A stretch of 64,000 nucleotides of DNA from Escherichia coli (lineage in GTDB: Bacteria > Pseudomonadota > Gammaproteobacteria > Enterobacterales > Enterobacteriaceae): the NCBI RefSeq assembly GCF_003334355.1, contig NZ_QOWP01000011.1. One strand, written 5' to 3'. Of the stretch, positions 11,116-16,314 are shown one piece after another. Position 1 is the first letter of the stretch; every line of letters begins with the position of its first letter. The notes under the pieces were generated by a model. That model worked only from the letters and a program-made list of their open reading frames with translations, searched no databases and had not been told where the DNA came from. The position numbers and the translations under genes are program-made.

Positions 11116-11719
11116 TGTAGTAATCTCAAACTTATATTGGGGTGGTTTGTTGAGGTAATAATAGAGCCTTAAATTCAGTTGTGCAATAGCCAGGAATGTA
11201 AGGAATTCAAAATTGTTCTTTATTTTGTGCCGCCAATAAATATCTTTTCATAAAATTAGCCAGAAAAGACGCGGCATATAGCCCTATTTACACCGATGAT
11301 TTCGCAGCACGTGAGGTTAAAACTTCCTGATTCATGTCACATTTTATGGGGAGATTATCGTAGGCTGACGACCTTTCAGTCTTCTGTATTAGTTGTGTTT
11401 ACGAGAATTCCCTATTAAGCGAATGATGAAAAGTAGAACAGTCGCAATAAGAGCATGGACTTAGTATTGCACTATCTCCTGGAGGTCAACAGAGGGCTAT
11501 TACTTGCGCAACAGGTTAAAGATTGTGAATAGTTACCAGCAGTCATTTACCCGCTTATAACAAGCGAGGCAGTTGTAATGATAGCTCAGAAGGATTATGC
11601 AAGGCTTCGTAAGGGAGAACGCATATACCCACTTCTGTGCATACTGTTGAGCTGAAAAACTGACGAATTATGATAAACTCCAGCCAACTTTATTTCATAT
11701 CATTGAGGGCCTGTGGCTG

Positions 11720-12337
11720 ATGGCACAGCTATATTTCTACTATTCCGCAATGAATGCGGGTAAGTCTACAGCATTGTTGCAATCTTCATACAATTACCAG
11801 GAACGCGGCATGCGCACTGTCGTATATACGGCAGAAATTGATGATCGCTTTGGTGCCGGGAAAGTCAGTTCGCGTATAGGTTTGTCATCGCCTGCAAAAT
11901 TATTTAACCAAAATTCATCATTATTTGATGAGATTCGTGCGGAACATGAACAGCAGGCAATTCATTGCGTACTGGTTGATGAATGCCAGTTTTTAACCAG
12001 ACAACAAGTATATGAATTATCGGAGGTTGTCGATCAACTCGATATACCCGTACTTTGTTATGGTTTACGTACCGATTTTCGAGGTGAATTATTTATTGGC
12101 AGCCAATACTTACTGGCATGGTCCGACAAACTGGTTGAATTAAAAACCATCTGTTTTTGTGGCCGTAAAGCAAGCATGGTGCTGCGTCTTGATCAAGCAG
12201 GCAGACCTTATAACGAAGGTGAGCAGGTGGTAATTGGTGGTAATGAACGATACGTTTCTGTATGCCGTAAACACTATAAAGAGGCGTTACAAGTCGACTC
12301 ATTAACGGCTATTCAGGAAAGGCATCGCCACGATTAA
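11720..12337 (+). CDS. tdk: thymidine kinase
   Basis: 205 aa; P-loop NAGKST near the N-terminus and C-terminal Cys zinc ribbon. Confidence 0.95.
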
Positions 12338-12351
12338 TAAGAATTTCTTTA

Positions 12352-12394
12352 CTGACAGGGTGAGCAGGGCACTTTTATCCTGTCAGTTCGTTTT
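12352..12394 (+). terminator. candidate terminator after tdk
   Basis: 8-bp stem ctgacagg/cctgtcag with large loop, followed by a T-rich tail; weaker than the others. Confidence 0.4.
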
Positions 12395-12618
12395 ACGCAC
12401 TTCTTCCGGGCTATATACCCTTCTCGGCAGTTTTTTAACGCCGCTATACGCCTCACAGGGCTCTTAAGCACCGACGTTGACTTGTGACCTGTAAAGTACA
12501 ATATCCCTGTGTTTAGGCGTTATACATCGTCGCAAATATGATGAAGGCTAATGCTGTCGGTTTATGGAAAAGTTGCTTTGGGTAAACAAAAAATACGGTC
12601 CCAGAAGGGCAATGCCGT

Positions 12619-13515
12619 TCACTTAAGAGGAGCGGCACTATGTTTCACAGGATAACGGGTTTTTGATATCTTAACCGACCTCGGCCTTGATGGTCGGGGG
12701 CGTTTTGTTATGAACACCACTTCCAGAGCACCCCGAAGATGCTCCAGTCGTTTCGGGATGGTCCCTGGTGACGCCGTGTTTCCCAGCTCTATCATTTCTG
12801 ATGCGATATTCTTCCACGCAGGCAGTAGCCAGTGGCGGTTACAACCCTTCTGGTTCAGCGTCAGCAGCAGGTCTTCGCTGTAAAAAAGTTTATCAAACAA
12901 CGTAATAGAGTTATCCGGGATGGTGGCGAGCATGGAGTGGGCCAGCACAGTTTCGCTCTGCCGGTAAGGTGCGGTCACGGCATTCAGCAGAATGTGACTT
13001 CCCAGGTTCATTAAGGCCACCAGACGCATAACCGGGTAGGCGTTCTGCCGCTTAGTGGATGTGTTGGCAGACCCATAATATTCACGCAGCTCGGGTTTAT
13101 CAGGTGTCCTGAACTGTGCGCCATCAATGGCAAAAAGTTGCAGGCCGTGCCAGTCATCCTTCAAGTAACGTTCCGCGCCCCTGTCTGTGCGGTCTGGCGG
13201 AAGAGCCATTCCACTGGGGCGGCCCCCACGCGCTGACGCGCCTGGGTGACAGCGCTGCGGGCCAGCAGGTTCATCCCCGCTTCGCCATCCGCGCTCAGGT
13301 TCAGACGGCGAACAACATCGGTAATTGGCTCATTGCACCACCATCCAGATAACCATGTCCCCCGGTAAACGACGGCGGCGAACGGTCGCATGAGCAGAAA
13401 ACGTCAGGCAGTGTTGTATCCACTCGGTGGGAAGGTGTTCTGCAAATAGTTGTGCAGAGGGCGGAGGCATAAGCGGATGGTCACTGAAATCGAGCAGATC
13501 ATTGAGAAGTGGCAT
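12619..13515 (-). pseudogene. insZ: degenerate IS4-family-like (DDE) transposase remnant, frameshifted into three ORF fragments (annotated insZ in K-12, as far as I recall)
   Basis: Three consecutive minus-strand ORFs (13330..13515, 13161..13391, 12619..13209) in different frames read as one transposase-like protein; no flanking inverted repeats identified. Confidence 0.6.
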
Positions 13516-13638
13516 AAGAAAACGGCTCCCTGTTGTGGAAGCCGTTATAGTGCCTCAGTTTAAGGATCGGTCAACTAATCCTTAACTGATCGGCATTGCC
13601 CAGAAGGGGCCGTTTATGTTGCCAGACAGCGCTACTGA

Positions 13639-16314
13639 TTAAGCGGATTTTTTCGCTTTTTTCTCAGCTTTAGCCGGAGCAGCTTCTTTCTTCGCTGCAG
13701 TTTCACCTTCTACATAATCACGACCGTAGTAGGTATCCAGCAGAATCTGTTTCAGCTCGGAGATCAGCGGGTAACGCGGGTTAGCGCCGGTGCACTGGTC
13801 ATCGAATGCATCTTCAGACAGTTTATCCACGTTCGCCAGGAAGTCTGCTTCCTGAACGCCAGCTTCACGGATAGATTTCGGAATACCCAGTTCAGCTTTC
13901 AGCGTTTCCAGCCATGCCAGCAGTTTCTCGATCTTAGCAGCAGTACGGTCGCCCGGTGCGCTCAGACCCAAGTGGTCGGCAATTTCAGCATAACGACGGC
14001 GAGCCTGCGGACGGTCATACTGGCTGAATGCAGTCTGCTTGGTCGGGTTGTCGTTCGCATTGTAGCGAATAACGTTACAAATCAGCAGGGCGTTTGCCAG
14101 ACCGTGCGGAATATGGAACTGGGAACCCAGTTTGTGCGCCATTGAGTGACATACACCCAGGAAGGCGTTCGCAAACGCGATACCCGCGATAGTCGCTGCA
14201 CTGTGAACACGTTCACGCGCTACCGGATTTTTAGACCCTTCGTGGTAGGACGCTGGCAGATATTCTTTCAGCAGTTTCAGTGCCTGCAGAGCCTGACCAT
14301 CAGAGAACTCAGATGCCAGTACAGAAACATAAGCTTCCATGGCGTGAGTTACTGCGTCCAGACCACCGAAAGCACACAGGGACTTCGGCATGTCCATAAC
14401 CAGGTTGGCGTCGACAATCGCCATATCCGGAGTCAGCGCATAGTCTGCCAGCGGATATTTCTGACCAGTAGCGTCGTCAGTTACAACCGCAAACGGAGTG
14501 ACTTCAGAACCTGTACCAGAAGTGGTGGTGACAGCGATCATTTTCGCTTTCACGCCCATTTTCGGGAACTTGTAGATACGTTTACGGATATCCATAAAGC
14601 GCAGCGCCAGCTCTTCGAAGTGAGTTTCCGGATGTTCGTACATAACCCACATGATCTTCGCGGCGTCCATCGGGGAACCACCACCCAGCGCGATAATCAC
14701 GTCTGGTTTGAAGGAGTTTGCCAGTTCTGCACCTTTACGAACGATGCTCAGGGTCGGGTCCGCTTCTACTTCGAAGAAGACTTCAGTTTCAACGCCTGCT
14801 GCTTTCAGTACGGAAGTGATCTGATCAGCATAACCATTGTTGAACAGGAAGCGGTCAGTCACGATGAGCGCACGTTTGTGGCCATCAGTAATCACTTCAT
14901 CCAGCGCGATTGGCAGGGAGCCACGGCGGAAGTAGATAGATTTCGGAAGTTTGTGCCACAACATGTTTTCAGCTCGCTTAGCAACGGTTTTCTTGTTGAT
15001 CAGGTGTTTCGGACCAACGTTTTCAGAGATGGAGTTACCACCCCAAGAACCACAACCCAGAGTCAGGGAAGGTGCGAGTTTGAAGTTATACAGGTCACCG
15101 ATACCACCCTGAGACGCTGGGGTGTTAATCAGGATACGCGCCGTTTTCATTTTCTGACCGAAGTAAGAAACGCGAGCCGGTTGGTTATCCTGGTCAGTGT
15201 ACAGGCAAGAGGTATGACCGATACCGCCCATAGCAACCAGTTTCTCTGCTTTTTCTACCGCGTCTTCGAAATCTTTAGCGCGGTACATTGCCAGAGTCGG
15301 GGACAGTTTTTCATGTGCGAACGGTTCGCTTTCATCAACAACGGTCACTTCACCGATCAGAATCTTGGTGTTTTCTGGTACAGAGAAGCCTGCCAGTTCA
15401 GCAATTTTATAGGCTGGCTGACCAACGATAGCCGCGTTCAGCGCACCGTTTTTCAGGATAACATCCTGAACAGCTTTCAGCTCTTTACCCTGCAACAGAT
15501 AGCCGCCGTGGGTTGCAAAACGTTCACGTACAGCATCATAAACAGAGTCAACAACAACAACAGACTGTTCAGAAGCACAGATTACGCCGTTGTCGAAGGT
15601 TTTGGACATCAGTACAGATGCAACTGCACGTTTGATATCAGCAGTTTCATCGATAACAACTGGAGTGTTGCCCGCGCCTACACCGATAGCTGGTTTACCG
15701 GAGCTGTATGCGGCTTTAACCATGCCCGGACCACCAGTCGCGAGGATCAGGTTGATGTCTGGGTGGTGCATCAGTGCGTTAGACAGTTCAACAGAAGGTT
15801 GATCGATCCAGCCGATCAGATCTTTCGGAGCACCGGCAGCGATAGCAGCCTGCAGAACGATATCAGCCGCTTTGTTGGTGGCATCTTTTGCACGCGGGTG
15901 CGGGGAGAAGATAATGGCGTTACGGGTCTTCAGACTGATCAGCGATTTGAAGATAGCAGTTGAAGTCGGGTTAGTGGTCGGAACGATACCGCAAATAATA
16001 CCGATTGGTTCAGCGATAGTGATGGTACCAAAAGTGTCGTCTTCAGACAGAACACCACAGGTTTTTTCATCTTTATAGGCGTTGTAGATATATTCAGAAG
16101 CAAAGTGGTTTTTGATCACTTTATCTTCGACGATACCCATGCCGGATTCGGCAACGGCCATTTTCGCGAGTGGGATTCGAGCATCTGCAGCAGCCAGAGC
16201 GGCGGCGCGGAAGATTTTGTCTACTTGCTCTTGAGTGAAACTGGCATATTCACGCTGGGCTTTTTTTACACGCTCTACGAGTGCGTTAAGTTCAGCGACA
16301 TTAGTAACAGCCAT
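13639..16314 (-). CDS. adhE: bifunctional acetaldehyde-CoA / alcohol dehydrogenase
   Basis: 891 aa; N-terminal aldehyde dehydrogenase and C-terminal iron-containing alcohol dehydrogenase domains; long untranslated leader upstream (16315..16790). Confidence 0.97.

Follow-up and report, generated by a model that had tools for sequence, protein, structure and literature searches.

The frameshifted transposase gene that lies between tdk and adhE in the stretch of Escherichia coli DNA analysed here (64,000 nucleotides in full, hereafter the window) is the pseudogene insZ, and the element that carries it, ISZ', is very probably the dead, single-copy relic of one old insertion of an IS4-subgroup element into the loop of the adhE terminator, decayed in place since then. 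The locus is an ordinary one and already known. RefSeq labels exactly 12619-13515 as a pseudogene ('IS4 family transposase, frameshifted'), the matching stretch of MG1655 carries the pseudogene insZ (b4573, formerly ychG) within a mobile-element feature named 'insertion sequence:ISZ', and a published table of the insertion sequences of E. coli has an entry ISZ'/insZ for K-12 (PMC3032704). Being a pseudogene already annotated in the most thoroughly studied of bacterial genomes, it is of small significance; what changes here is its anatomy, with the ends and the target-site duplication (TSD) found intact, a loss that is internal rather than C-terminal, and a boundary in MG1655 that is 9 bp short.

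The genes of the neighbourhood are galU, hns, tdk (11720-12337, plus strand) and adhE (13639-16314, minus strand). Compared with K-12 MG1655, the window has the same locus, at the same position relative to tdk and adhE and with the same three deletions; three SNPs separate the two over the 1,301 bp of the tdk-adhE intergenic region. The window comes from a non-K-12 strain and over 12338-13638 is 100% identical to strain PSS-12. The ORF list, its translation, NCBIfam, RefSeq and MG1655 all place the transposase pseudogene on the minus strand at 12619-13515, where it is made up of three ORF pieces on that strand: piece 1 (61 aa, 13515-13330), piece 2 (76 aa, 13391-13161) and piece 3 (196 aa, 13209-12619). 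An earlier note on this DNA, made from the letters alone, had described three minus-strand fragments in different frames. The three fragments stand, but three-frame translation puts pieces 1 and 3 in one frame and piece 2 in another, so that there are two frames, not three, and two frameshifts. In NCBIfam, pieces 2 and 3 match NF033592, the model of IS4 family transposases, at E=2.7e-07 and E=2.9e-23 respectively; piece 1 gave no match of its own in the NCBIfam search and is identical at 58 of 60 positions to the N-terminus of an intact relative. This similarity to IS4-family transposases is far above chance, and with these matches, and with pieces that are colinear with a 445-aa transposase of the family, the note was right to place a decayed transposase between tdk and adhE.

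The whole ISZ' element spans 12610-13598 (989 bp, minus strand) and, in global alignment to an intact copy (2501-3930 of sequence L003), is a copy, shortened by internal deletion, of an IS4-subgroup insertion sequence of 1430 bp. The earlier note had seen no terminal inverted repeats (IRs) and had suggested looking in the flanks for their remnants and for a target duplication; all of these are present. The IR at the transposase-distal end reads CAATGCCGTTCACTTAAG (12610-12627, plus strand) and the one at the transposase-proximal end reads CAATGCCGATCAGTTAAG on the minus strand (13581-13598). Both were located by a scan for the IR pattern and both recur as the ends of the intact copies; each is 18 bp long, and the two match at 16 of 18 positions. 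In the 64-kb window the pattern occurs only twice, on opposite strands and precisely at the two ends of the element, against 0.06 occurrences expected by chance. A sub-terminal palindrome, TTAAGGATCGGTCAACTAATCCTTAA (13560-13585), recognized by its fold, overlaps the inner part of the transposase-proximal IR, and the motif is also found at the equivalent end of IS4. The ISZ feature of MG1655 agrees with our right end at 13598, while its left end was drawn at the insZ stop codon, 9 bp short, so that the outermost 9 bp of the transposase-distal IR (12610-12618 of the window, 1294417-1294425 of MG1655) fall outside it.

Directly outside the IRs, alignment to the empty site identifies two copies of the 10-bp TSD CCCAGAAGGG, at 12600-12609 and 13599-13608. 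In many strains the tdk-adhE spacer is only 301 bp long and is empty, and comparison with strains that lack the remnant, also suggested in the earlier note, recovers the pre-insertion sequence. When the empty-site strain L002 is aligned with the window, the insertion falls at a single point. The empty site reads ACGGCCCCAGAAGGGGCCGTTT, within the longer stretch AAAAAAACGGCCCCAGAAGGGGCCGTTTATG. Across the insertion, the window reads ACGGTCCCAGAAGGG on the left, then the element from CAATGCCGTTCACTTAAG to CTTAACTGATCGGCATTG, then CCCAGAAGGG followed by GCCGTTTATG. Removal of the element and of one TSD copy from the window gives the L002 sequence save for two changes in the left flank, a T inserted in a run of A (12596) and a C-to-T substitution at 12599. 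The one-base insertion and the substitution are later changes, the latter being seen in the window strain.

What the copy has lost is best seen against the intact relative on plasmid NZ_CP062837.1 (33003-34432, corresponding to L003 2501-3930), which is 1430 bp long and has one ORF of 445 aa encoding the transposase WP_029488891.1. ISZ' is 94.4% identical in DNA to this element over 989 aligned bp in the global alignment and differs from it by exactly three deletions, of 423, 17 and 1 bp (441 bp in all). The largest is in frame, with its junction at 12799-12803, and removes aa 243-383 (141 codons). The 423-bp block is flanked in the intact element by 14-bp direct repeats exactly 423 bp apart (TTTCTGTCGCGATA at L003 2686, TTTCTGCCGCGATA at L003 3109), and slippage or recombination between these repeats is the likely origin of the deletion. 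The earlier note had called for at least two frameshifts, and two are found: the first results from the 17-bp deletion at 13335-13336 (L003 CATTGCGGAAAAAGGTCATGGCCACCACC, window CATTGCACCACC) and the second from the 1-bp deletion at 13181-13182 (L003 GAGCCCCATGTCTG, window GCGCCCCTGTCTG). Since 17 bp and 1 bp add up to 18 bp, ORF pieces 1 and 3 are in the same frame.

Once the 17-bp and 1-bp gaps are mended, the translation runs colinearly through aa 1-242 and then aa 384-445 of the 445-aa transposase, and the repaired protein is identical to the intact one at 281 of 304 aligned positions, seven unknown residues being scored as mismatches. The residues D137 and D214 are present; Y311-R314-E318-K325 (YHSRWEIEVGFRNLK), the YREK motif with the catalytic glutamate, is deleted. 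The C-terminal 62 aa of the transposase are kept in frame, and the missing block (aa 243-383) is internal, contrary to the loss of the C-terminal part that the note had supposed. This internal loss takes away the active site, and ISZ' is predicted to be catalytically dead and is presumably a relic without activity. The copies active today differ from it by 5.6%, which may be a matter of age or of its having come from another sub-lineage of the insertion sequence.

Members of the IS4 subgroup have been defined as elements of 1400-1650 bp with ends of the form -AATR--------WTW---- and a TSD of 10-13 bp, and with a single ORF, no programmed frameshift, and a DDE triad with Y-(2)-R-(3)-E-(6)-K (PMC2266710). 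The intact relative has every one of these features. Its 445-aa transposase carries the Pfam domains Nterm_IS4 (residues 21-112, 1.7e-30) and DDE_Tnp_1 (residues 129-356, 5.1e-22) and scores 263 bits against NF033592, for which the cut-off is 115. ISZ' itself has a transposase homologous to IS4-type DDE transposases (NF033592), ends that fit the subgroup consensus, with AATG (positions 2-5) and TTA (positions 14-16) in both CAATGCCGTTCACTTAAG and CAATGCCGATCAGTTAAG, and a 10-bp TSD (CCCAGAAGGG), checked against the empty site, that falls within 10-13 bp. It departs from the definition in size and ORF (989 bp, broken reading frame) and in the DDE/YREK residues (aa 243-383 deleted), and these departures are attributed to decay, not to a different architecture. 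From its sequence, then, ISZ' is best classed as a member of the IS4 family, IS4 subgroup, by descent. We considered whether it is an iso-form of IS4 and rejected this, the two transposases being 39% identical and the DNA lining up clearly only at the flanks and extreme ends. No ISfinder name for the parent element was obtained from the literature search or from a look-up of exact-sequence clusters, where it was absent from the collection; the name ISEc13, which nothing here supports, is not adopted.

The closest known relatives are the intact ISZ-type elements, which have the same 18-bp ends as ISZ' and, as in the 94.4% identical 1430-bp element, a TSD of 10-11 bp as against 10 bp in ISZ'. 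These copies are 1429-1430 bp long with a single 445-aa ORF that includes D137, D214 and Y311-R-E318-K325, whereas ISZ' is without the catalytic glutamate. The intact copies examined (L003 2501-3930, L009 1501-2930, L012 1501-2929, L013 1501-2930 and L014 1501-2929) have TSDs of 10-11 bp, that of the copy on plasmid NZ_CP062837.1, which has the same ends as ISZ', being 11 bp. Among the 40 best-matching copies listed, intact copies are 99.3-100% identical to each other, and they are present, on chromosomes and plasmids, in 162 of 5,426 genomes. More distant is IS4 (insG in K-12), which belongs to the same subgroup and has the same domain architecture, although its transposase is only 39% identical. 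The transposase-proximal end of IS4 differs from that of ISZ' only at the first IR base (T in IS4, C in ISZ') and has the sub-terminal palindrome in common with it. Between IR and start codon IS4 has, in the same position as ISZ' but with a different sequence, a strong terminator-like hairpin (about 4620-4655 of L005). In O157:H7 chromosomes the tdk-adhE site is empty, and partial ISZ-type fragments (~93% identical, 44% query coverage) are found elsewhere, annotated 'transposase domain-containing protein'.

Distribution was scored over 5,426 complete E. coli genomes. A megablast with 12338-13638 reaches a coverage of at least 80% in 1,884 genomes, where the stretch is labelled 'IS4 family transposase'; the tdk-adhE locus is 99.3-100% identical in every carrier among the matches listed, and the carriers sampled each have it at one place, tdk-adhE. 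The tdk-adhE hairpin was found empty in 2,204 of the 5,426 genomes, which upholds the earlier view of the remnant as the fossil of an old insertion. ISZ' itself, scored by its 423-bp deletion junction, occurs in 1,885, and the tdk-side flank is joined to an IS4 end in a further class of 1,130. The junction was counted at 1,887 places in all, of which 1,885 are chromosomal and two plasmid-borne, and a single genome accounts for three; the plasmid and extra places may be chromosomal segments that were captured, or may reflect rare movement of a dead element. ISZ' is a single-locus, immobile relic. The IS4-type occupants of the site are a full-length IS4 of 1426 bp (L005 3273-4698) and a deleted form of 1145 bp that is 98% identical to IS4 (L004 1772-2916, L006 3273-4417), both in the orientation of ISZ' and both with the 12-bp TSD CCCCAGAAGGGG. 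The three states of the site (empty, ISZ', IS4) form a polymorphism usable as a lineage marker.

We propose that a 1430-bp IS4-subgroup element with a DDE cut-and-paste transposase would have entered the loop of the adhE terminator once, long ago, duplicating 10 bp of target. Decay at the site would have followed: the 14-bp repeats, through slippage or recombination, would have cost the copy 423 bp that included the catalytic glutamate and the YREK motif, and the 17-bp and 1-bp deletions would have broken the reading frame. The dead ISZ'/insZ would thereafter have been passed on vertically and is now found in about a third of E. coli, K-12 included. No observation made here goes against this course of events. 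That the gene is really intact, its breaks being sequencing errors or programmed ribosomal frameshifts, is a general possibility for any interrupted ORF, and here scarcely a credible one. The 423-bp junction recurs in 1,885 complete genomes, all listed carriers have the locus, 17-bp and 1-bp deletions included, at 99.3-100% identity, and two independently annotated records that we inspected both call it a pseudogene. Relatives encode an uninterrupted 445-aa ORF, and frame-repaired ISZ' is still without the catalytic glutamate. On the recurrent junction and the protein comparison, we reject both sequencing error and programmed frameshifting. Better founded, if still very improbable, is the idea that ISZ' is non-autonomous yet mobilisable, its IRs being served in trans by an intact ISZ-type or IS4 transposase: both 18-bp IRs are intact, the transposase-proximal end is nearly identical to that of IS4 and shares its palindrome, intact ISZ-type copies occur in 162 genomes, and IS4 is widespread. 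Against this, the deletion junction of 1,885 genomes lies at only 1,887 places, with the sampled carriers having the one place between tdk and adhE; the ISZ-type and IS4 transposases are 39% identical; and the ISZ' IRs mismatch at 2 of 18 positions. The multiple dispersed deleted copies, each with its own TSD, that would mark a MITE-like element are likewise not seen among the 1,887 places in 1,885 genomes.

A third alternative accepts the decay and concerns why the relic has been kept, and it turns on the adhE terminator. On the adhE (minus) strand the empty site has an intrinsic terminator of 10 pairs, AAACGGCCCCTTCTGGGGCCGTTT followed by TTTTGTTTAC, that is, AAACGGCCCC-TTCT-GGGGCCGTTT and then TTTTGTTTAC. 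The insertion point of ISZ' is the loop of this hairpin, and the terminator is split, with its adhE-proximal half at 13599-13622 (minus strand) and its other half and T-tract at about 12586-12609. A terminator scan found no intact adhE terminator at the insertion place in the window. The same scan, with RNA folding, found within the element a terminator-like hairpin, AACGGCTTCC-ACAACA-GGGAGCCGTT followed by TTCTTATG (13521-13546, minus strand), with a 10-bp G+C-rich stem directly 5' of the transposase ATG (13515) and 26-33 nt from the inner edge of the IR. On the adhE strand it comes some 95-120 nt after the adhE stop codon, and it has a T-rich tail. Hairpins in front of the transposase start are known in insertion sequences to shield the transposase gene from external transcription. 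Past the end of adhE, no other terminator-like structure precedes this hairpin in the window, and adhE transcripts of carrier strains probably stop at it. Whether the hairpin (13546-13521) has been co-opted, serving now as the adhE terminator with the remnant retained as functionally needed, is a further step that we think rather unlikely. The splitting of the canonical terminator of empty-site strains and the presence of a G+C-rich 10-bp hairpin with a T-rich tail past the adhE stop speak for it; the tail (UUCUUAUG) is, however, a weak U-tract, retention is equally explained by the lack of an excision mechanism, and carriers and non-carriers are both common. In an Rfam scan of 11100-13700 the sole match, sub-threshold, was of ctRNA_p42d to the element hairpin (33.4 bits, where the gathering score is 50); we rejected membership of that family and take the match as one to a generic hairpin with a U-tail.

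The site has been struck more than once. ISZ' and the IS4 occupants are different elements with TSDs of different length (10 bp in ISZ', 12 bp in the IS4 of other strains, in the same hairpin and orientation), and therefore at least two independent insertions have entered the same hairpin. Five independent ISZ-type insertion sites were compared: tdk-adhE, ssrA-ypjA, copM-silE, a site near gnd, and one on a plasmid. Four of the five rebuild G+C-rich hairpins of terminator-like appearance, with loops of 3-4 nt and with the loop at the centre of the TSD; the fifth, on the plasmid, is an imperfect palindrome only. The copM-silE copies (sil/pco island; ATCC 8739 and ETEC H10407) are 1429 bp long and frameshifted. 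The target rule of IS4, known from the IS4 literature of the 1980s, is AAA-N20-TTT; it holds, in the same register, for the tdk-adhE site and for the IS4 site of K-12. The tdk-adhE hairpin may thus be a recurrent landing pad of IS4-subgroup elements, through recognition of G+C-rich hairpin loops and with independent ISZ-type and IS4 hits, and the hairpin before the transposase ATG may now terminate the highly expressed adhE transcript in carriers; taken as one, this is a tentative reading that we put a little short of an even call. If it holds, the locus would clearly illustrate how elements of the IS4 subgroup target terminator hairpins and swap the terminator of a host gene for their own.

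On the other side of the insertion, tdk has its own hairpin directly after its stop codon (12351-12386), and because of this tdk should be unaffected by the insertion. An unannotated spacer of ~200 bp (12395-12595) separates this hairpin from the adhE terminator; it is present in essentially all E. coli, empty-site strains included. A heat-shock-dependent sigma-32 ChIP site has been placed 'between tdk and ychG' in K-12 (PMC3738151). Read directly, the plus strand of the spacer has TTGACT at 12477-12482 and, 16 nt on, CAATAT.
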